Positions 5,966-58,377 of a stretch of 64,000 nt of DNA are shown in pieces. How positions within the stretch are numbered: the first letter of the stretch is position 1; each line of letters starts with the position of its first letter. The stretch comes from a virus. Lineage: Duplodnaviria > Caudoviricetes. The DNA lies in IMG/VR virus record IMGVR_UViG_3300011008_000002; one strand, 5' to 3'. The position numbers were made by a program, and so were the translations under genes. The notes under the pieces were generated by a model that saw only the letters and a program-made list of their open reading frames with translations, had not been told where the DNA came from and searched no databases.

Positions 5966-6388
5966 ATGACAGGTAGAGAAATTAACTTCAAAACGGATAA
6001 ATATAATAATCCGGTGTATCTTTCCAAAAGAGAATCAGTGGCTCAAGTAATCCAAAATGCTCTATTTATGAAACTCGGAAATAATCCGAGTCATCCAGAT
6101 AGAGGTGTTGATATAGAACAGTATCTGAATAAACCTGTCGATATGGTTGACAACATGAAAATACTGACTGATTTACGACACACCTGCGGTTCAGATATGG
6201 TTGGTAACGAAATTCAGTCTTTGAGTTTTGATGTTGTCAGATTAGAGACAGGCGATGAGGTAGCTTTGATACTTATTCGATTATCAATAGACAATACGGA
6301 AGACATGATGGCTATTGTCATTCAAAAGAGGAAAGATAACGTTGTCCGTTACAATTATAATTTCATTAACGAAGACGTACCCGTATAA
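5966..6388 (+). CDS. Baseplate wedge subunit, T4 gp25/GPW-like
   Basis: 140 aa; the pattern IQNALFMKLGNNPSHPDRGVDI matches the gp25-family I..LL.T..GE....P.FG..L signature; structural gene context. Confidence 0.65.
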   Translation: MTGREINFKTDKYNNPVYLSKRESVAQVIQNALFMKLGNNPSHPDRGVDIEQYLNKPVDMVDNMKILTDLRHTCGSDMVGNEIQSLSFDVVRLETGDEVALILIRLSIDNTEDMMAIVIQKRKDNVVRYNYNFINEDVPV

Positions 6389-6415
6389 AATCTTTTGAAA
6401 GGAGGGCGTTGGTGT

Positions 6416-8581
6416 ATGGCAAATATCCATGAACGTGGAAATTTTGACATGACTGAAATATTGCGGAAATCTCAGGAACAACAGAAAGCCAGAGAAGCCG
6501 CTAAGCAAAAAGCATCATCGACAAACAAGCAATCAGTTGCTGTACAAAAATCTACAGACATTGCATCTGCTCAACATGGTGATTATGTAGAAACCGCTGA
6601 CGGAACTGGCGGTATCTTAATTGATCACGAAGCTGAAATAGAGAAGATGCGGGAGAACGATAAGACAGGGAAAGCCTTAATGCAATTAGTGAAGTATGAC
6701 GGTTTGATATCTGAAGCCAACGCATACAGACCGGAGTATGGAGAAAATGCACCAGAAGGATATGACCCTGGGGTAGAATGGATAAAACAAAATCCATGGG
6801 ATCCAAAGACAAAAGAACTGAAGAAGATAAAAGAAGGATTTGCAGGACTTTCTTATGGTATTGAGGGATTGGTACCAATAGACTCAGAAGAAGCCCATAG
6901 AGTAGCTGAGGCTATGGAAAAAGTTCGTACCGGAGAAATTGTACTCCCTACACCTGAAGAATATGAAATGCAAAGACAAGCTGCTAAAGAACGTAAGAGG
7001 CAGCGAAGAGAAAAGTATTCTCACAACAATAATAAATCTCCTAAAAAACAGGAGACTGTAGTAAACCCAAAAGAAAGAAACTCTATACCTATTGAGGAAG
7101 AAAATCCAGAGCCTCAAATGGCAGAAATGCCAGAGAATGCATACATAACGAAAGGAGTAATGGAACAGATGGATGAAATGAACAATAGTACGCCTAAGCG
7201 TACAGTCAACGTATCTGTAAAACAGCCCGAACAACAGGTTGTGGCACCGCAGAACATCAACAACGCTGTGGATAATGATGTTATCGCACAGCAGATTATG
7301 AACGATCCAAGTTTGGATGTCGAACTTCCTATGGAAGATGATCAGGAAGTAGGTGGAATAGAGATTGAACAAAACGCACAACAACCAAAGCAACCAATCG
7401 ACCTTTTCCAGGTTCAGGAGAATCTTGATGAAGCCAGTAACGATGAAGTTTCTGAAGATGGTAATCAGAATAATACTTCTGATACTGCTTCTGAAAGCAA
7501 CGTCATGGTGATTAATGTACCGAAGGACGAGGTGGATAATTTCGTTAAGCAGATGCCTGTTGAAACGTTCAACAAAATGACAAGTGCAGACGTTATTCAG
7601 ATTAACGAGGTGGAGCTTAAGGATGTTCCTACAGCAACTCGTCGTATCGACAGTATCGCCGAATACAGGGCTATTCGGAACCGTCGTAAGGATAAGAACA
7701 AGCCGACTCAGCTCAGGGAAAGAGCTCTGCCGAACTCCGGTTATGTTGCAACAGTAAAACCGGCTACATCTATGGAGATGTCGACTATGTTCAAGTCTCC
7801 TACTCTCAACAGCGATATTGAATATCAGAAATTATACGATTTCTGCTATACCCATATGGTGGATTCCTCTATTGGAAGGATGTCCTTTGCAGAATTCGTA
7901 AATAACACCGATCCTGCTGAGTTGGAAGATCTCGCATATGACATCTATGCTATGTCTGAAACATCCGAGAGGAAAATCAGCATTCATTGCGGTGAAGGTG
8001 ATGGCGGTTGTGATCAATTCTTTGAGATCACTGTCGATGCTAATACTATTCCAGATATCTCTGGTTTGTCTGACGAGTATAAGAACCGTGTGAAGGAAAT
8101 CATTGAAGTCAGGAACGACCTGAACTCTGCAAAGGAGCTTCAGAAGAATTCTCCGATAATGAAGTATAAGGTTGTCCGGTTTGGTGATTCGTACTTCTAT
8201 GTACGTAAAACGACCGGTCCGATGATGACCAGTAGGGATGATAGGCTCGTTGAGATTGGTGAAAAGCATGGACAGTTTGTTGCACTTTTGATCCTCTTCG
8301 TCGATAAAGTGGTGGTTACTTATCAGGAGAGGGAAGATGTGGAACCTCGAACTGTTGAGTTCACCGATGTTGAAATGATATGTGAAGAACTCAAATCTTT
8401 GGATGACGATCAGCTTGATACGCTTAAGGATATTATTGGTAACAACATCGAAGACTTCCCGAAGATGACATATTCTCTTAAGGGCGATTTCGTTTGCCCT
8501 AATTGTGGAAAAAGGAGAACTCGCATTCCTTGTAGCGTGACTGACCTGATTTTTCAAAAAGTCCAGCGGATGTTCGGTTAA
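6416..8581 (+). CDS. Baseplate hub or tail assembly chaperone-like protein (T4 gp26-like C-terminal region) with a long low-complexity N-terminus
   Basis: ATG 6416 after GAAAGGAGG. The C-terminal region has DLAYDIYAMS...HCG..GGC and CPNCG zinc-binding motifs. Follows the gp25-like gene. Confidence 0.5.
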   Translation: MANIHERGNFDMTEILRKSQEQQKAREAAKQKASSTNKQSVAVQKSTDIASAQHGDYVETADGTGGILIDHEAEIEKMRENDKTGKALMQLVKYDGLISEANAYRPEYGENAPEGYDPGVEWIKQNPWDPKTKELKKIKEGFAGLSYGIEGLVPIDSEEAHRVAEAMEKVRTGEIVLPTPEEYEMQRQAAKERKRQRREKYSHNNNKSPKKQETVVNPKERNSIPIEEENPEPQMAEMPENAYITKGVMEQMDEMNNSTPKRTVNVSVKQPEQQVVAPQNINNAVDNDVIAQQIMNDPSLDVELPMEDDQEVGGIEIEQNAQQPKQPIDLFQVQENLDEASNDEVSEDGNQNNTSDTASESNVMVINVPKDEVDNFVKQMPVETFNKMTSADVIQINEVELKDVPTATRRIDSIAEYRAIRNRRKDKNKPTQLRERALPNSGYVATVKPATSMEMSTMFKSPTLNSDIEYQKLYDFCYTHMVDSSIGRMSFAEFVNNTDPAELEDLAYDIYAMSETSERKISIHCGEGDGGCDQFFEITVDANTIPDISGLSDEYKNRVKEIIEVRNDLNSAKELQKNSPIMKYKVVRFGDSYFYVRKTTGPMMTSRDDRLVEIGEKHGQFVALLILFVDKVVVTYQEREDVEPRTVEFTDVEMICEELKSLDDDQLDTLKDIIGNNIEDFPKMTYSLKGDFVCPNCGKRRTRIPCSVTDLIFQKVQRMFG

Positions 8582-48981: not shown

Positions 48982-51900
48982 TTAATGAACAATCAGACGT
49001 TCACCATAATAGATGATATCTTTTGCAACGTAAGCATTGACTATTTCGTCATATTCAATATTGGGTTGATACCCTTCTATTGAAGTAGACAATTTCGACT
49101 CGAATACCAAACGATTAATTTCATCTCTGAAGTCCAATCCTGCAAATACAATATCCCCTTTAGAATATTCTTGAGATGCTTCATATTTATCATCTGAACT
49201 TACAATGATATCAAACGTTTCACGAAGAATTTCAAGCTTACCAGTTGCTAATTCAATTTTCTCTTTATTGTTGTCCCACACTTCCATCATAGTAGATTCA
49301 TTGGTGGGAACATCTGGTTTCTTTGTATGAACGTCCATATATGGATTATCCTTACGCTGTTTTTCATTCCAATCAATACCAGTGAGAATTTCAAAACAAG
49401 CTCTTTTTAACTCAATAAGAACTTTGTATCCAATTTCAACGGTAATTACAGAAGGAGTACCACGTTGTAGAATAGCTGATGGGGCAAGAGGAATGTCAAT
49501 TTCCTCATATGGACGAAATGCTGTATACGGTTCCAAACCACGAGGTACCATATATCCGTTAGTTGCTTTATTTGCAGACATATGAGCAAATTTATCACCA
49601 TCTGATACTTCATCGTGATAAGTAACGTATATTTCTACAAGAACTCCATCATGGACATCAACACCTGCAATCTTACCATATTGGTCTGGTTTTACCATAC
49701 CAACTGAGTCTGTAAAGAATATTCCTTTCCTATATACGGAGTTTTTATTTTTATCGTACTTGTCCATATAGGAACGTCTTTGCCTATCGTGTTTCTGGAC
49801 ATTATCGACCATCTTCTTAAGCGATGGTGACAGTTGATCAAGTTCAACCGCAGGATAAACCCTAATGTCTGCAACTACGCCATCGTGCTTTGATGTATAC
49901 TTAGAACGCCCAAGATTTACAATATCCTCTTGCAAATCCTGCCTTATAGATTTCATAAGTTCATTCATCTCAGCATCAGAATATGCAGTATCGAACCTAA
50001 TAAGGTCGTCACCATTCTTTATATGGTCTCCAATCTTTGCGATATAATCAACATTGGAATTCTTTCCAATAACTATGGAAACTTCTTTCATTGTTATATC
50101 TGCTGACATTGCACGACTTAGCCTGTATGTAGACCACATAGAGTCTTCATAGGTTGCCATATTTGATAAGCAGGCAGTCTTTACTCTAGTACCATATGTG
50201 AGTTTGTTACCAAGGACACCAGTATCCTTGTAATAGTGCTTATCAAAAGCCAATATTGTATCTTTCTTAAACTTGTCTCCTTTCTTAAAAGAAGAATCAA
50301 GCTTATTATCGAGATAGAAACCACCACCGCCATTTTGAACAATCTTCTTATCCAAATCAATAGCATGAATAGAACCATCTTTATACTTAATCACCATGAT
50401 ATTGACATTATCATCTCTATCAATAACTTCACCATCCTGCTTCGCTACATATGAAAAATCATTAGATGTACGATACTGGATAGTTGAGTCAAAACCATTT
50501 GTGATAAGAAGTGGACTTTGTTCCATTACAGGAATAGCATGACAAGATTGTTTACTCGTCATAGCTGTACGGTTCGGGTCATCATGAGCAACACCCATTG
50601 GATATGTCATTTCCTCTGTAGTCATGAGTTTCGTAACATCAAGGTTCTCTGCATTCTCACGACCAACAATATCAAGCATACCATAGGCGTTAATAACATT
50701 GGGTTCTACAACCAAATGCCTCTCTTTACCGCAGTTTCCTGATATATCCGTAGAAACTCCAATGAGACCAACCATATTGTCATGATAATTACGTTTTTCC
50801 TCGCTGTAACTCCTATCCTTATTCATACCAACGTAACCCTTCATAGAAGTTACTCCGAACTGTTTTACTTCAACGATAGGTGAAAGGGTACTATAAGAAT
50901 CAACAGTAGGAAGAGCATTCAATTCCTTAATAACACAATCCGGATCCAACGTAAGTTTCTTCGGATTAGCATTATTCGCTGTCTTACGATAGCTCTGGTA
51001 AGCTTTGGTCATATTCTTATAAAGAATTGCAGGTATGATTTCTACACTTCTTAACCTATACAAACGAGGATCAGTATCAATTGAGAATGAACTATCTGCA
51101 AGCATATTACTCGCAAATATCATAAGAGATACTACATCTTCAGGATAACCAAGAAGTTTTAGAATATCCAGAGTTTTGAAGTCAATCATAAACTCATAGA
51201 AATTAATAAAACCGCCTGCATAATACCCACTCCCAAGTAGCTGTTCAAATATGGTAATGTAGGTTTCTCTCTCATCAAGTTCCGCTATAGTAAAATCTTT
51301 CATAACAAGTTCTGTATATCCATTGAATAAAAGACAAGATTCCAAATCATTCATAGCATATTTCAGATAGCCATCCTTAAATTCGATATACATATAATTG
51401 TCTGAGCTATCTTTCTTGTCAACAAATTCAACCCTGTCCTCGCCAGTCAAGTTATTGAACTTTTGAACCACCGTAGTGAGACCCTCAAAAAACGTAACCG
51501 CAAATATGAGAGGAAAATCCTTCTCCATCATAGTAACGTTGTTATGGACATACTTTCGTCCAGACGATAGCCTCTTGAATGTATCATAATACACTGGCAT
51601 TGACTCATTAACAATAAGAGATACCATATCTTGATGATCAGCGTTCTTTGTATTGTATACGATTGGAGTTTTATTTTTCCCTTTATATCCAATCATAATC
51701 TCCTCTAACGTGGAATCCTTATATTTATCACCAAGTTCTTCTTTCAGCATATCTACTGAAAATACGAATGTACAATCATTAATGATGATTTTATTGTACC
51801 TTGAAGCTAAATCATCATATTCAAGACAAGTCAGATATGGTTGATTGATAACTGAGTTATCGCCTTTATATACTCGAATATTGACATTATCAGGTCTTTT

Positions 51901-53688
51901 GCTAGGGTCGACTAAGATTTTCTTAAATCTCTCCATATTCGGGTTAAACCTTGTGCCATGACGAGTCATCCAAACTTTATTATAGTTGGTAACTATCTGA
52001 AGTTCATCAGGACCAGTCTTTATAATAGGAAGACCAAAAAGTTGTTTCTCAATAACACGTTTCTTCCCATTTATGATGAGGAATTTATCATCAACGAGTT
52101 TAGGAATATTAACCTTCATAGTATGACGTTTCCTATTCTCATCCTCAAATTCCACCGTATAAGTGTCCTGATACACAAGCTCTGTTGAAGTATCTTCAAC
52201 TGTCACGTTAATGATATTGACGTTAATACTTTTATCATTGAATGATGTGAGGGCTCTTGCGATATCCCTATCCATCATCTCATTGATGTATACTGACTCA
52301 AAGTTATAAAATCTAACATTCTTTAATTCATCATTATCCGTAACAGCATTATCAATCTTGTACTCAGGAATTACAGGGGGTTCAGGTATTTCTGCAACAA
52401 GTTCACCAATGGTCTTATCCTTGATTTTTAGTTGCATCTGTCTTTCACGTAACATTTGATCGCGTTTTAGTGAAGCCGCCGTTTTTGTACCTGCCCTCTT
52501 ACCGGTAACTGAATTGAGATAAGAAGATTTAAGAGTATCATCGTTTTCAATTTCCTCAATAGTATCATCAATGGCTTCTTCTGCATCTCTATCCATATTG
52601 GAAACATCTTCATCTTCGATACCAAGAGTTTGAGCCTCTGCCTTAAGACGTTTCTTTTCTTCCTTTAACTCTTCCTCTTTATCAGCTTCTGTATCCTTTG
52701 TCTTTTCAATTTTCTTCTCTAACTTTTGAGCCGCTATATCAGCTGCAATTGTATGAGCATCCTCACCGGTCTCAAATGAAACAGGTACAGGACCAGTAGC
52801 ATTCTTCTTCAATCTTTCAGCGATAGTTTCATCCAAATCAGTCTTGATGATATTGTCAACCTTCTCATCAATCTTATTGAATTTAGGACTAATACGTTTA
52901 GTGAAGTTTACTAACTTCGTATAATTCTCTCTCTTGAAATCTTCCAGTGAGTTGACAAGAATGTATCCCTTTGTAGTATAAAAAAGAATGCTTATCTCAG
53001 GGACATCCATCATGATCTTATAGATTACATTATTGGATTTCTTAAGCATAATCATCATGTAATCGTAAAATGAATAATCTGTAAGCTCACAATTCGGATT
53101 ATATTCATCCAAATCAATGAATATTGGGGACTTCTCATATCCCTGAAATTGTAACCCATTATAGAAATTACCTATTGTCTTAAAATATGTCTTCAATCTT
53201 TCAATCAAAGGCATTTTCTTTAATCTAACTTGATAAGAAAGTAATCTCGTAACGGGTTCCATGTCGTAAACGACATTCTTTTGAGCTAACGTGTTAAGAT
53301 TTAATGGAGTAATAACATTCGGACAAAGTTCCTGTATTACCCCATAATCTTTAAGTCTCTCCTTCTTGAGAACCAGTTTGGTTTTCCCTGGGTTTTTGAC
53401 ACGAGGAGATTTGATACTTCCTCTAACCCTAAGAAAATCATAATAATATCCTCTATAAGAGGAACCTATGTTCATAATTCTCGGATGCTTATTGTTAAGA
53501 ATTGTAGCAATACTCTGGGGAGATGTATTGAGAAATGGTACCATCATTCCCTTATTACTACCTTCCTTTTTAGGCATTTGCATCTTATCCTTCGTAACTG
53601 AAAAATCATTGACATTCTCCAGTTTCTTCATTTCCATTATAGCTGAAGGTATCATAGCATCTAACCCTTCAAAAACTACTAATTCCAT
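48982..53688 (-). CDS. Phage RNA polymerase beta subunit (probably virion RNAP), N and C parts in one ORF
   Basis: FLIINGKKRV, RNYHDNMVGLI...GNCG, HDDPNRTAMTSKQ, TYEDS and GDKFAHMSANK correspond to conserved beta regions; ACA-N6-TAA at 53724-53735; terminal VFE|G and TNE|S sites. Confidence 0.92.
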   Translation of the reverse strand: MELVVFEGLDAMIPSAIMEMKKLENVNDFSVTKDKMQMPKKEGSNKGMMVPFLNTSPQSIATILNNKHPRIMNIGSSYRGYYYDFLRVRGSIKSPRVKNPGKTKLVLKKERLKDYGVIQELCPNVITPLNLNTLAQKNVVYDMEPVTRLLSYQVRLKKMPLIERLKTYFKTIGNFYNGLQFQGYEKSPIFIDLDEYNPNCELTDYSFYDYMMIMLKKSNNVIYKIMMDVPEISILFYTTKGYILVNSLEDFKRENYTKLVNFTKRISPKFNKIDEKVDNIIKTDLDETIAERLKKNATGPVPVSFETGEDAHTIAADIAAQKLEKKIEKTKDTEADKEEELKEEKKRLKAEAQTLGIEDEDVSNMDRDAEEAIDDTIEEIENDDTLKSSYLNSVTGKRAGTKTAASLKRDQMLRERQMQLKIKDKTIGELVAEIPEPPVIPEYKIDNAVTDNDELKNVRFYNFESVYINEMMDRDIARALTSFNDKSINVNIINVTVEDTSTELVYQDTYTVEFEDENRKRHTMKVNIPKLVDDKFLIINGKKRVIEKQLFGLPIIKTGPDELQIVTNYNKVWMTRHGTRFNPNMERFKKILVDPSKRPDNVNIRVYKGDNSVINQPYLTCLEYDDLASRYNKIIINDCTFVFSVDMLKEELGDKYKDSTLEEIMIGYKGKNKTPIVYNTKNADHQDMVSLIVNESMPVYYDTFKRLSSGRKYVHNNVTMMEKDFPLIFAVTFFEGLTTVVQKFNNLTGEDRVEFVDKKDSSDNYMYIEFKDGYLKYAMNDLESCLLFNGYTELVMKDFTIAELDERETYITIFEQLLGSGYYAGGFINFYEFMIDFKTLDILKLLGYPEDVVSLMIFASNMLADSSFSIDTDPRLYRLRSVEIIPAILYKNMTKAYQSYRKTANNANPKKLTLDPDCVIKELNALPTVDSYSTLSPIVEVKQFGVTSMKGYVGMNKDRSYSEEKRNYHDNMVGLIGVSTDISGNCGKERHLVVEPNVINAYGMLDIVGRENAENLDVTKLMTTEEMTYPMGVAHDDPNRTAMTSKQSCHAIPVMEQSPLLITNGFDSTIQYRTSNDFSYVAKQDGEVIDRDDNVNIMVIKYKDGSIHAIDLDKKIVQNGGGGFYLDNKLDSSFKKGDKFKKDTILAFDKHYYKDTGVLGNKLTYGTRVKTACLSNMATYEDSMWSTYRLSRAMSADITMKEVSIVIGKNSNVDYIAKIGDHIKNGDDLIRFDTAYSDAEMNELMKSIRQDLQEDIVNLGRSKYTSKHDGVVADIRVYPAVELDQLSPSLKKMVDNVQKHDRQRRSYMDKYDKNKNSVYRKGIFFTDSVGMVKPDQYGKIAGVDVHDGVLVEIYVTYHDEVSDGDKFAHMSANKATNGYMVPRGLEPYTAFRPYEEIDIPLAPSAILQRGTPSVITVEIGYKVLIELKRACFEILTGIDWNEKQRKDNPYMDVHTKKPDVPTNESTMMEVWDNNKEKIELATGKLEILRETFDIIVSSDDKYEASQEYSKGDIVFAGLDFRDEINRLVFESKLSTSIEGYQPNIEYDEIVNAYVAKDIIYYGERLIVH

Positions 53689-55248: not shown

Positions 55249-55884
55249 TTACGCTTCTTTTATTTCAGCTAATATAAATTGTAATGTCTGATAGTAAATA
55301 GTATAATTCGGTTCAATAAACTTATTACCATAGATAGTACTATAGAAACTACAGATTTCTTCAATAATATCATCGTACTTCATTAGCATTTTACAAAATG
55401 GACTAAGTATATCTCTATATTCTGAATTCAAATACGCTACTGGTATTAGAATAAGTTGAGATACTGGTAATCCATCAAAAACGCCAATTTCTGATTCAGC
55501 TAGTTGCTCTAAAATCATATGATTGCACATTGACTCAAATTGACCATAGAACCAATTTGGTCCACAATCAATTTCCACCATATAATCGTATGATAAAAAG
55601 AAATCATCATCTAAATTATATCTATTATTTATATACTCTATCATAGCATACGAACCATATTCTATATCATCTGGATATTCATAATCTATGATTTCATAAC
55701 CTAACTTATTAAATGCATTATAAAACCATTTGTTGATATAAGCCATATAAATTTCCACTATGGTTTTATTCCTGTGAATTATATTAAAGAAAAAGAAGTA
55801 TTTAGAAATGTAGAAAGCCACATCTGTCTTGTCAGGTAATGAAGCAGCTCTTATAAATGGAGAAATTGTATATATTTTTTGCAT
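55249..55884 (-). CDS. Hypothetical protein (211 aa)
   Basis: ATG 55884 after GGGAGGTG; TATATTAA at 55911-55918 (minus). Confidence 0.75.
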   Translation of the reverse strand: MQKIYTISPFIRAASLPDKTDVAFYISKYFFFFNIIHRNKTIVEIYMAYINKWFYNAFNKLGYEIIDYEYPDDIEYGSYAMIEYINNRYNLDDDFFLSYDYMVEIDCGPNWFYGQFESMCNHMILEQLAESEIGVFDGLPVSQLILIPVAYLNSEYRDILSPFCKMLMKYDDIIEEICSFYSTIYGNKFIEPNYTIYYQTLQFILAEIKEA

Positions 55885-55926
55885 TTTATCACCTCCCTTT
55901 ATCTTACCATTTAATATATTTATATA

Positions 55927-55979
55927 AAAGTTAAGAAGACCATCAGGTTTCATCCATACCCAATGGTCTTCTTAACTTT
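55927..55979. terminator. Strong hairpin, probable terminator
   Basis: AAAGTTAAGAAGACCAT/ATGGTCTTCTTAACTTT 17-bp stem. Confidence 0.7.
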
Positions 55980-56104
55980 ATCTGTACTCATACATGAAAA
56001 AGAATTAGGAAACTGGCAACATTTTCCTACTGGAAGGTTTATTTTCCAATTTATTTCTATGTATATATGACAATAAAAAATTATAATAAAAATAATATTT
56101 AATA

Positions 56105-57147
56105 GAAGGGCATACATAAACTTAATGTAGAACGCGGGCATGTCACGTTGTTTAGTTTAAAGTAACAACCAATAATCGAACGTTTATCTCCTAGAGACAA
56201 GCGTATTGGTCACAAGAGATGCGAAACGAATTAGATGACAATATGTGTACGAGTCTGTTAATATGCAGGACGTGGAGTCGCCAGTAGCAATACTGGTAAC
56301 GAATGCTGTAAGAACTGCCACTTATTCATTAAAAATGCTCTCGCGACTATTGGTATGTATGCTGTAGTAATCTACATACTAGGTCATGATCGAAGAAAAC
56401 ATCCTACGAGAGCGGGGATTTAGTAGAGGTAGCACCCCTTATTTTGTAAGGCAGAACCACTATAAACATTATGAAATAGAGAATGAAAGAGACGTTTATA
56501 GGGGAGGCCGTGAGCTCGAATCACCTTATGGGATAAGAAGACCTATCGTATTAAATTGCTGGATGTAGGCCCTTTAGGAGCAGGTGCATTAAAAGACTGA
56601 GTGAGAAGGTCGAGTGGGTGGTCACTAGCTCGGTATGCAACCCCACAACTATGGACGCGAGGGTTGGGACCCGTACCAAACTTAATCGTGGGTTTCACAG
56701 GATGGAGCAGACGGTCGCCTAGGTAGCGACGAATTAAGTACAACCTCATACACCTAGATTCGGTTGGTTACAATAGAATCTCATCGTATTTATAGAATAA
56801 AAGAGCTATCGCAAGATAGATACTACAAGTCGGGGGCACTCGACGTCTCAATGTAAAACGGTTGCAAACGGTTTGCCATGTTTGCGATACGATGGAAAAT
56901 AAGAATTGTGGTAGGAGCATCATAGTCCATCCCTAATCATGATTATCTTATTATATCGCGAGATATGTGATATCACAGGTAACGTACAGTTCTTCTTGTG
57001 GTGCTGTACGTTATTCCTATATAAGACGATAATTCGATGTCGTCGAATGCTTTCGAGGTAAGTAGCATGATATCTTTTCGATGGATATTAAAAACTTTAG
57101 TATCTGATAATTTTGCCTCCAGATACGCCTTCGCGTGGGGGTATTTT
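56105..57147 (+). ncRNA. Candidate large structured non-coding RNA (about 1 kb), family unassigned
   Basis: No credible ORF, GC-richer than its flanks, GNRA-capped hairpins (56281-96, 56806-19, 56953-66) and many nested helices. Ends are approximate. Confidence 0.65.
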
Positions 57148-57229
57148 GTAGTTCAAAAATAACTTTTTAGGATTGCTGACACAAATTTTAACAAGCAGAA
57201 AGAGGTGAAAAATGACAGAAACATTGTAA

Positions 57230-57860
57230 ATACGGGTAACCAGGCTTATTTTAGCTGGTTACCCGTATCGTTTCAGTCCTAAAAATCCCAAAATTTTCAC
57301 TTTTCTCGTAGCCGTAATTTACAGTAAAAGAAAGAAAGAACCAAAGAAAGAAAATCAACACAAAATAACCCCGTGGGTCCCCCCACCCCACGGGGTTATT
57401 TTGGTGTTGTTGATTTTTCATTTTATAAAAAACCAAAATTTTTTTCTTATCCGAAAAAGAAAATTTTTCGAAAAAAGAGAAAAAGAAAGAACCAAAGAAA
57501 AAGAGAAAAATCTAAACGAGAATTTTATATATTTCGTAGCCTTATTTAAGAAAAAATCCGCCTGTACAGGCGGATTTTTAAAACAAAGAAGTCGCTTACG
57601 CTCCTATTGTTTTCTACACGAGATATTCATAATATTGATTTTATCCAATTTTCGTAGATTAAAATCCGAAATTTGAATTTATAAGAGAAAATTTAATAAA
57701 ATATTAAAAATTGGATTTTAGGAAATTGGATTTATGAAAACCAAAATTTAAAATGCGAAATTTCCGAAAATCTTGTACGTACAAACAAAATCAAATTTTG
57801 AGCGAAAATAACGGATTACAATACGGAAAAATTCAATTTCCGAGAAAAATATTTGCGTAC
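57230..57860. other. Origin- or terminus-like non-coding region with large inverted repeats and A-tracts
   Basis: 14-bp stem at 57230-57268; 17-bp stem at 57361-57403; 28-bp palindrome at 57552-57579; 19-nt direct repeat at 57331 and 57482. Confidence 0.4.
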
Positions 57861-57918: not shown

Positions 57919-58377
57919 ATGAAAACACGAGAAGAAATTGTATACATTGCATACAGAAATAAACAAGTATTTGTATACTCATATGATATAAATGCGTTCT
58001 TTACTTACTTGAAATCTTTATATGAGAGAAATTCCAATATTTACTTGGAACTAGAAAAGAAAACTATTGAAAAATGCGAGTTTTCATATCAGTCCTTGTA
58101 TCCAGAGGAGGAGTTGGTAGAATTTGTTGAAAATGAATATATGCCCATCTGGGAATACCGTATTTGGCGGCGTTACTGGGACAGTATCAGACTAAAAACT
58201 TTAGACTTAACCTCTGAAGAAAACAAAAATAATCCTGCTTTGAAAAATGTCGATAATTTTCTCTATTACGTTGGATATGATAAAGTAAAAGAGAAAATCA
58301 AATTGGATAATATTGTTTTCGAACCAGAAAGTTATTTAATGGATTTGGAATTCAGCCAAATAATCGAGGACAAATAA
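57919..58377 (+). CDS. Hypothetical protein (152 aa)
   Basis: RBS GGGGGTG; TATATTAT at 57867. Confidence 0.75.
   Translation: MKTREEIVYIAYRNKQVFVYSYDINAFFTYLKSLYERNSNIYLELEKKTIEKCEFSYQSLYPEEELVEFVENEYMPIWEYRIWRRYWDSIRLKTLDLTSEENKNNPALKNVDNFLYYVGYDKVKEKIKLDNIVFEPESYLMDLEFSQIIEDK

Follow-up and report, generated by a model that had tools for sequence, protein, structure and literature searches.

A very large structured RNA of gut jumbo phages that very probably represents a new noncoding RNA family

Does a gap of about 1 kb without open reading frames (ORFs) in the genome of a gut jumbo phage encode a large RNA and, if so, of what kind? The gap lies in a stretch of 64,000 nucleotides (hereafter the window) of IMG/VR virus record IMGVR_UViG_3300011008_000002, a 229,126-bp virus sequence judged 97% complete, of which the window is the minus strand. 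An earlier note, made from the letters of the window alone, had proposed that positions 56105-57147 hold a large, ornate and possibly new noncoding RNA (ncRNA) of a jumbo phage, read from the plus strand. Both the absence of any Rfam match and the covariation among homologues support that proposal, and we conclude with high confidence that the locus at 56113-57017 is a real, new family of structured ncRNA. The RNA is noncoding, lies on the plus strand and comprises ~35 helices.

Conservation and distribution of the RNA

At 48982-53688 (minus strand), the window phage encodes an RNA polymerase beta subunit of the split, multisubunit type (phrog_3148, E = 2e-133), whose nearest relatives among cultured phages, at ~30% identity, are those of Listeria phage LPJP1, the Staphylococcus jumbo phages S6 and PALS_2, and Bacillus phage PBS1. 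These polymerase relationships place the window phage, which comes from gut metagenomes and is uncultured, among the jumbo phages of the PBS1/AR9-like lineage. Relatives of the polymerase in public assemblies formed 27 clusters at 62-78% identity, with a second tier at 42-46%. Contigs were taken from eleven polymerase relatives; one IMG/VR relative was added via the polymerase and two via a degenerate motif scan (relatives are designated below by L numbers). Every first-tier contig that reached far enough upstream carried a homologue of the RNA at the equivalent place and on the equivalent strand. Homologues were found with nhmmer and aligned, and the resulting alignment (A6) holds 13 distinct RNA sequences, 50-72% identical to the window, from gut phage contigs of ~220-245 kb.

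Around the RNA, the genes always follow one order: polymerase beta, three small ORFs, RNA, ORF of 150-200 aa and ORF of 580-800 aa. In every phage, the RNA is on the same strand as the two downstream genes (152 and 578 aa in the window). The flanking proteins are orthologous but 22-46% identical across phages whose RNA keeps long invariant blocks; by sequence comparison, the RNA is conserved more strongly than the adjacent proteins. Its conservation spans ~56113-57017 and decays on both sides, the flanks being unalignable between relatives, and all 13 sequences place CAGGACGU and CAUAG 648-679 nt apart.

Motif and model searches delimited the family further. A 24-base pattern from the most conserved block matched five IMG/VR contigs, all five of them true homologues, and had no match in JGI metagenome contigs or in 185,579 GTDB genomes, which excludes close copies in those two sets only. 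Exact 16-18-mers retrieved one relative only from IMG/VR, and a looser hairpin pattern returned 57 chance matches and 3 true ones there. No match was obtained with blastn against 50,697 GenBank phages, and no further loci came from a search seeded with an alignment of two RNA polymerase sequences. R1, a covariance model of 56710-56798, reached 90-97 bits in two more complete jumbo phage genomes but had no significant match in the cultured relatives LPJP1, S6 and PBS1, and a profile hidden Markov model (HMM) and a motif scan found no homologue near the polymerase gene, within 10 kb, in the second-tier phages L038-L040 (polymerase 42-46% identical). The RNA is single-copy, a profile HMM of it finding no paralogue in the window phage genome. 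To date, a single clade of gut jumbo phages (~220-245 kb), distantly related to Bacillus phage PBS1/AR9, Staphylococcus phage S6 and Listeria phage LPJP1, accounts for all members of the family.

Covariation and strand

The structure model combines the RNAalifold consensus of A6 with four long-range pairings from an all-against-all helix search. RNAalifold on two sequences already gave 22 compensatory pairs, and an alignment of 11 sequences had double changes in 97 of 167 pairs. The A6 model contains 216 pairs in 35 helices, with 91.8% of cells paired, vs 39-42% when partners were slid by 1-3 columns. Both sides change in 126 pairs (mean after shuffling, 75) and in 407 cells (142), shuffling lowers the covariation score from 0.460 to 0.226, and none of 500 shuffles reached the observed value on any of these measures. 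The check for covariation among homologues from related jumbo phages that the earlier note had called for thus yielded extensive covariation. Among paired cells, G-U combinations outnumber A-C by 354 to 53, and the folded molecule is therefore the plus-strand transcript, as the note had held.

The claim that the region is free of ORFs also held: ORFs reach no more than 68 aa, frames opened by reassigning a single stop codon reach at most 129 codons, and among the homologues variability lacks a 3-base period (0.277/0.268/0.272 by position).

Long-range pairings

Four candidate long-range pairings, all on the plus strand, join distant parts of the model:

56211-56216 with 56995-57000, plus strand: PK1, CACAAG with CUUGUG in the loop of the 3' terminal hairpin (helices 5-6, 96-100% paired)
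56400-56404 with 56561-56565, plus strand: PK3, CAUCC with GGAUG (helix 15, 100% paired)
56363-56367 with 56823-56827, plus strand: PK4, UGUAG with CUACA (helix 13; G-C to A-U in L025 and L034)
56648-56653 with 56921-56926, plus strand: PK2, ACUAUG with CAUAGU (helix 24, 98.7% paired, invariant)

PK1 has a compensatory pair, CACGAG/CUCGUG, in L092, and the divergent L041 has no recognisable form of either motif. PK3, which reaches across the 3' strand of the UGCUCUCG/CGAGAGCG helix and the long arm described below, has two independent compensations, CACCC/GGGUG in L002 and AAUCC/GGAUU in L041. PK2 has no covariation support because its strands are invariant, and its pairing could be due to chance. 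Compensatory changes in the alignment thus underpin three of these pairings, PK1, PK3 and PK4, which would tie the ~35 helices together.

Parts and ends of the RNA

From 5' to 3', we distinguish the following features:

56059-56119, plus strand: candidate basal 5' hairpin, UAUGUAU (56059-56065) with AUACAUA (56113-56119), with a variable loop of 47 nt in the window
56067-56096, plus strand: sigma-70-like promoter match, ATGACA-18 nt-AATAAT (10/12), doubtful
56113-57017, plus strand: conserved structured core of ~905 nt, from nhmmer, alignments and covariation
56126-56267, plus strand: 5' domain with stems 56126-56129/56264-56267, 56134-56139/56253-56258 and 56142-56150/56237-56250
56268-56335, plus strand: most conserved block, CAGGACGUGG..GCC-hairpin-GGUAACGA..UGUAAGA..CCACUUA..AAUGC
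56336-56414, plus strand: helix UGCUCUCG/CGAGAGCG (helix 11; 99% paired, double changes in 5/8 pairs)
56415-56560, plus strand: long three-segment arm, 56415-56432/56543-56560, 56438-56455/56521-56537 and 56457-56466/56495-56504
56578-56677, plus strand: two hairpin arms, 56578-56586/56623-56631 and 56632-56644/56659-56677 (helices 20-23; 16/21 pairs double-changed)
56687-56781, plus strand: three conserved hairpins, 56687-56713, 56714-56730 (GUCGC-CUAGGUA-GCGAC) and 56756-56781 (AGAUUCGGUUG..CAAUAGAAUCU) (helices 25-28)
56782-56894, plus strand: domain closed by CAUCGUAUU/GAUACGAUG and GAAUAA/UGUUU (helices 29-32; 25/29 pairs double-changed)
56898-56952, plus strand: arm AAUAAGAAUUGU/AUGAUUAUCUUAUU (helices 33 and 34), whose inner loop carries CAUAGU (56921-56926), the 3' strand of PK2
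56979-57014, plus strand: 3' terminal hairpin (helix 35; 94% paired, 9/14 pairs double-changed), whose conserved loop UUCUUGUGG gives the 3' strand of PK1
57127-57150, plus strand: terminator-like hairpin (57127-57142) and U tract

Within the stems of the 5' domain lie a variable insertion and CACAAG, the 5' strand of PK1, and 13 of the 19 pairs in helices 1-4 are double-changed. The most conserved block holds a helix at 56272-56279/56312-56321 and a hairpin at 56280-56297 (helices 8-10), with GUGG/CCAC replaced by GUCG/CGAC in L041. The 5' strands of PK4 and PK3 both sit in the loop of the UGCUCUCG/CGAGAGCG helix. In the long arm (helices 16-19), 29 of 41 pairs carry double changes, and a hairpin at 56506-56516 keeps a GNRA loop (GUGA, GAGA, GAAA, GUAA) in 9 of the 13 sequences. 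The second of the two hairpin arms presents ACUAUG, the 5' strand of PK2, in its loop; the 56782-56894 domain contains hairpins at 56829-56843 and 56853-56876 together with the 3' strand of PK4.

All the stems listed in the earlier note are present in the window at their places, and the alignment separates them by their support. Double changes back GCTCTCG/CGAGAGC at 56337/56407 (5/8 pairs), TATAAAC/GTTTATA (6/9), CATCGTAT/ATACGATG (8/9) and GTAACGTACAG/CTGTACGTTAT (9/14). The stem of CCAGTA-GCAA-TACTGG covaries as well (4/7 pairs), but its loop is not conserved as GNRA, and GTCGC/GCGAC is conserved yet without double changes. ACCAATA/TATTGGT, although present in the window, falls within a variable 5' insertion that five relatives lack, and CTATC-GCAA-GATAG and ATATC-GCGA-GATAT are real in the window, while their sequences and loops vary between relatives. 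One proposed helix, CTGCC/GGCAG, found no covariation support; part of its CTGCC strand (GCCAC) pairs instead with GUGG(AG) at 56272-56279.

The ends proposed in the note, 56105 and 57147, are plausible in view of the terminator-like hairpin at 57127-57142, but conservation covers 56113-57017 and a covarying stem points further upstream. Of 12 relatives, 11 retain this basal 5' stem, and compensatory versions of it were read from the sequences of L042 (UUGUAU/AUACAA), L052 (CUUGUAUA/UAUACAAG) and L032 (UAUGUAAU/AUUACAUA); the start of the RNA therefore probably lies upstream of 56059. The 56067-56096 match to a sigma-70 promoter is doubtful because it lies inside the loop of this covarying stem; it is probably spurious, promoter-like sites in the region numbering 10 vs 9.7 after shuffling. 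We also discarded TGTATATA as a general phage promoter, a motif not over-represented in the genome (27 seen, ~26 expected).

At the other end, the terminator-like hairpin at 57127-57150 is likely the 3' end of the transcript in the window phage. L052 has a 16-bp terminator directly after the 3' hairpin on the RNA strand, terminator-like hairpins with U runs are readable in L042, L027, L032 and L041, and U runs directly follow the 3' hairpin in L025, L034 and L036. These terminators fit a discrete transcription unit, whose transcript would probably measure 1.05-1.2 kb.

Comparison with known RNA families

A cmscan search with the 4,227 families of Rfam 15 at gathering scores matched nothing in the window, in the loci of six relatives or in those of three more distant phages. 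This was the check that the earlier note had proposed; no family matched, so the novelty it had suggested stands. When thresholds were relaxed, the best match in 56100-57150 was RAGATH-6 (E = 1.5; 24.5 bits vs a gathering score of 170), and the divergent homologue L025 had no Rfam match at E up to 1. GOLLD (RF01998) was not matched at E up to 10 in 55700-57700, and the ROOL model (RF03087) was unmatched in the window, in the relatives' loci and in L025. The models of RNase P RNA, tmRNA, 6S RNA, SRP RNA and rRNA were likewise unmatched in the window, as were those of group II introns (RF00029, RF02001 and related, domain V/VI) at E up to 10. The RNA is therefore not detectably GOLLD, ROOL, OLE, HEARO, RNase P RNA, or a group I or group II intron.

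OLE (RF01071) resembles the window RNA in being large (~600 nt) and in having highly conserved unpaired nucleotides between covarying helices. OLE is chromosomal, occurs in extremophilic or anaerobic Firmicutes and lies beside the genes of its protein partners, oapA, oapB and oapC, whereas the window RNA has no such partner genes and no match to the model. With group I introns (RF00028), which are frequent in this phage lineage, it has in common a pseudoknotted core and an AUAGUCC-like motif; unlike them, it interrupts no gene, its candidate P7 has the wrong topology and the model does not match. The pRNA of phage phi29 (RF00044) is likewise a phage-encoded structured RNA with conserved complementary loops. 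That RNA, of ~120-174 nt, serves packaging in small podoviruses, and its complementary loops pair between copies; for the window RNA, pairing between copies is conjectural, and the pRNA model has no match in the window.

The closest analogues in kind are GOLLD and ROOL, which are phage-borne RNA-only cages, and in ROOL a tertiary contact predicted from covariation proved to be an interchain kissing loop (PMC12286853). GOLLD, a stand-alone ncRNA (PMC12286853), is also phage-borne, exceeds 800 nt and has an ornate multi-helix, pseudoknotted fold; it is conserved mainly in its 3' half, in contrast to the window RNA, which is conserved along its whole core. ROOL likewise is a large ornate RNA with several covarying long-range pairings, from phages and prophages of the Firmicutes-rich gut or rumen, but the window RNA is ~1.5 times longer.

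Three relatives alone have an insertion between the RNA and its downstream neighbour, a gene for an IscB-like protein (440-444 aa; Pfam RRXRR, E = 7e-33):

L025:3752-5086, minus strand: IscB-like gene, Pfam RRXRR
L034:3880-5211, minus strand: IscB-like gene, Pfam RRXRR
L036:2684-4006, minus strand: IscB-like gene, Pfam RRXRR

We considered and rejected the RNA as a guide RNA of IscB: it is present in 10 phages with no such gene nearby and has no HEARO match. HEARO (RF02033)/omega-RNA was unmatched even in the loci with the IscB-like gene. PF14239 had no match in the window genome, a weak negative, since control genomes were silent too.

In the literature searched, we found no description of a large RNA in such phages, and the motifs of an IMG/VR-wide screen for structured RNA average 67 nt (PMC10690425).

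Genome setting

Of all ORF-free gaps in the genome, the one that holds the RNA is the largest, measuring 1,447 nt between gene A (minus strand) and the 152-aa gene (plus strand, 57919-58377). G+C content is 0.40-0.48 over 56200-56950 vs 0.26-0.33 in the flanks, and GC skew is positive there. Other genes of the window phage encode a 4,057-aa protein and a head-tail joining protein. ARAGORN detected neither tRNA nor tmRNA genes, whether in the window or across the 229-kb genome, an unusual finding for a jumbo phage.

Gene A is listed as an ORF at 55249-55953 (234 aa), but its start is probably the ATG at 55884 behind GGAGGTGAT, giving 211 aa, the length of the only database entry for its product. 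Orthologues 26-47% identical occur in relatives, although a word-based protein search matched the product only to itself, and a search for related loci with the 234-aa ORF returned nothing. The flanking proteins have no recognisable RNA-binding or other domain, and ESM Atlas look-ups of the 152-aa and 578-aa neighbours gave nothing informative.

Between gene A and the RNA lies a strong 16-bp hairpin (55927-55981), the source of spurious miRNA-family matches in the permissive Rfam scan, and hairpins of differing sequence occupy the equivalent position in L031, L034, L025 and L092. The hairpin in the window could serve as an insulating terminator or form the 5' end of the RNA transcript. Downstream of the RNA, 57200-57268 contains a mini-ORF with a strong ribosome-binding site (AAGAGGTG), an ATG at 57213 and the peptide MTETL-stop, ending at a long hairpin (57229-57268). 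Similar short peptides occur at this position in relatives (MKETRI-stop, MKETRY.., MTIKMKYG..), and mini-ORF and hairpin together resemble a leader peptide or an attenuator placed before the 152-aa gene.

Two phages outside the family have ORF-free elements near the corresponding place. In Listeria phage LPJP1, a 1-kb unannotated ORF-free gap lies directly upstream of polymerase beta (L104:5795-6849; MZ422438.1 75617-76671); its G+C rises from 0.20 to 0.33, its folding z is -2.46, and it has no Rfam or R1 match. It may be the site of an unrelated structured RNA, in a tractable phage. In L038, whose polymerase is 46% identical, a G+C-richer ORF-free element of ~400 nt (6300-6700, minus strand; z = -3.1) occupies the syntenic site on the equivalent strand and is followed by a strong terminator; with the window RNA it has only AUAGUCCAU in common.

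What the RNA may be

The overall explanation that we consider on balance probable is a new family of very large ncRNA, single-copy and working in trans as a particle locked by pseudoknots. On this account, the RNA would be transcribed as a discrete unit ending at an intrinsic terminator, would fold into a compact particle locked by PK1, PK3 and PK4, and would act in trans during infection as a stand-alone RNA, like GOLLD and ROOL; some of the complementary loops (ACUAUG/CAUAGU and CACAAG/CUUGUG) may join separate copies into a homo-oligomeric assembly. We favour the compact particle because GOLLD and ROOL are the closest analogues in kind, and by that analogy we propose, tentatively, an architectural or self-assembling particle as the mechanism. 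Several observations weigh against it. The pairing evidence is equally compatible with intramolecular and intermolecular contacts, and the highly conserved unpaired nucleotides of the junctions fit a catalytic core equally well. Unlike GOLLD and ROOL, the RNA is not near tRNA genes, its genome having none; such a location is typical of these two families and not strictly defining. The transcript ends are sequence-based, and the stretch has been found in DNA runs only (three gut-metagenome runs from one sample). Finally, the folding-energy z is modest and similar on both strands (-2.35 plus, -2.58 minus), so that the case rests on covariation.

Readings of the RNA as a ribozyme or as part of a ribonucleoprotein (RNP) fit the data almost as well as the particle. 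A new class of large ribozyme, in which junctions and pseudoknots make up the active site and the reaction, be it RNA cleavage, ligation or some other, serves the phage, appears unlikely but is the main rival: invariant, mostly unpaired runs (CAGGACGUGG, GGUAACGA, UGUAAGA, GGCAGAAC, UGAAA, GAAUCAC, GGUCCUUUA, CGGUCG, GGAUUCGG and GGAAAAUAAGA) lie between covarying helices, the length of the core is rigid (648-679 nt) while peripheral hairpins vary, and the fold is multiply pseudoknotted, as in RNase P and group I introns. However, at E up to 10 no known ribozyme model matched, neither conserved exons in the flanks nor a processing site can be seen, and ROOL, GOLLD and OLE are conserved similarly; to our knowledge, no catalytic activity has been reported for any of these three. 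We regard as less likely still an RNA subunit or regulator of an RNP, which would associate with a protein of phage or host, for example the multisubunit RNA polymerase of the phage, the ribosome, or a part of the virion or its packaging machinery, on the models of 6S RNA, OLE and phi29 pRNA. The fixed site between the polymerase beta gene and a block with the head-tail joining protein, the constant company of the three small ORFs of conserved position and the 150-200 aa ORF, and complementary loops that recall the intermolecular loop pairing of pRNA all speak for such a role, but synteny alone is weak evidence, and the flanking proteins evolve fast and, as noted above, have no recognisable domain.

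The other explanations, a cis-acting leader, an intron remnant and an element that is not RNA, are unlikely. A very long structured leader controlling the downstream 152-aa and 578-aa genes is improbable: while RNA and genes are co-stranded in every phage and the mini-ORF with its strong ribosome-binding site and hairpin stands between them, in the window the core ends ~900 nt short of the gene start, with at least one terminator-like hairpin in between, a strong terminator directly follows the RNA in L052, and in the three relatives with an intervening IscB-like gene the RNA is retained. We know of no leader of such size or number of pseudoknots. More improbable again is an intron of group I or group II, either free-standing or decayed, as might be suspected from AUAGUCC (56923-56929), which resembles the S element of group I introns, and from relatives such as PBS1, whose polymerase genes have introns with homing endonucleases. 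Neither Intron_gpI nor a group II model matched at E up to 10; the ACUAUG partner lies in the loop of a hairpin (helix 23) that covaries in 7/7 pairs, which contradicts the P7/P3/P8 order; the R-like GGAUGGA is a local covarying hairpin; and the upstream gene is on the other strand. Exons are absent, because the flanks are unconserved and the neighbouring genes diverge from the RNA. We rejected the group I reading on its wrong topology, the missing model match and the absence of exons. Least probable of all is that the locus acts as DNA (an origin or packaging site) or is a cryptic coding region: it is indeed the largest ORF-free gap of the genome, but its excess of G-U (354) over A-C (53) is strand-specific, compensatory change runs helix by helix, no repeats or iteron-like features were seen, and no frame is open under reassignment of a single stop.

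Significance

The known bacterial and phage ncRNA classes longer than 500 nt and of obscure function are a handful (OLE, GOLLD, ROOL, HEARO and raiA), and each has led to unexpected biology, most recently RNA-only nanocages. With its core of ~905 nt, the RNA described here would rank among the largest of them, and its comparative signal is unusually clean for 13 sequences. Its carriers are human-gut jumbo phages with their own transcription machinery. Possibly, though we put this forward with reserve, it points to a new class of natural RNA machine, either a large ribozyme or an RNA-only multimer larger per chain than GOLLD, and to at least one further, unrelated large structured RNA in the same genome. 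A family of this kind would widen the idea that large phages rely on elaborate RNAs, and it would be well suited to cryo-EM and ribozyme assays.

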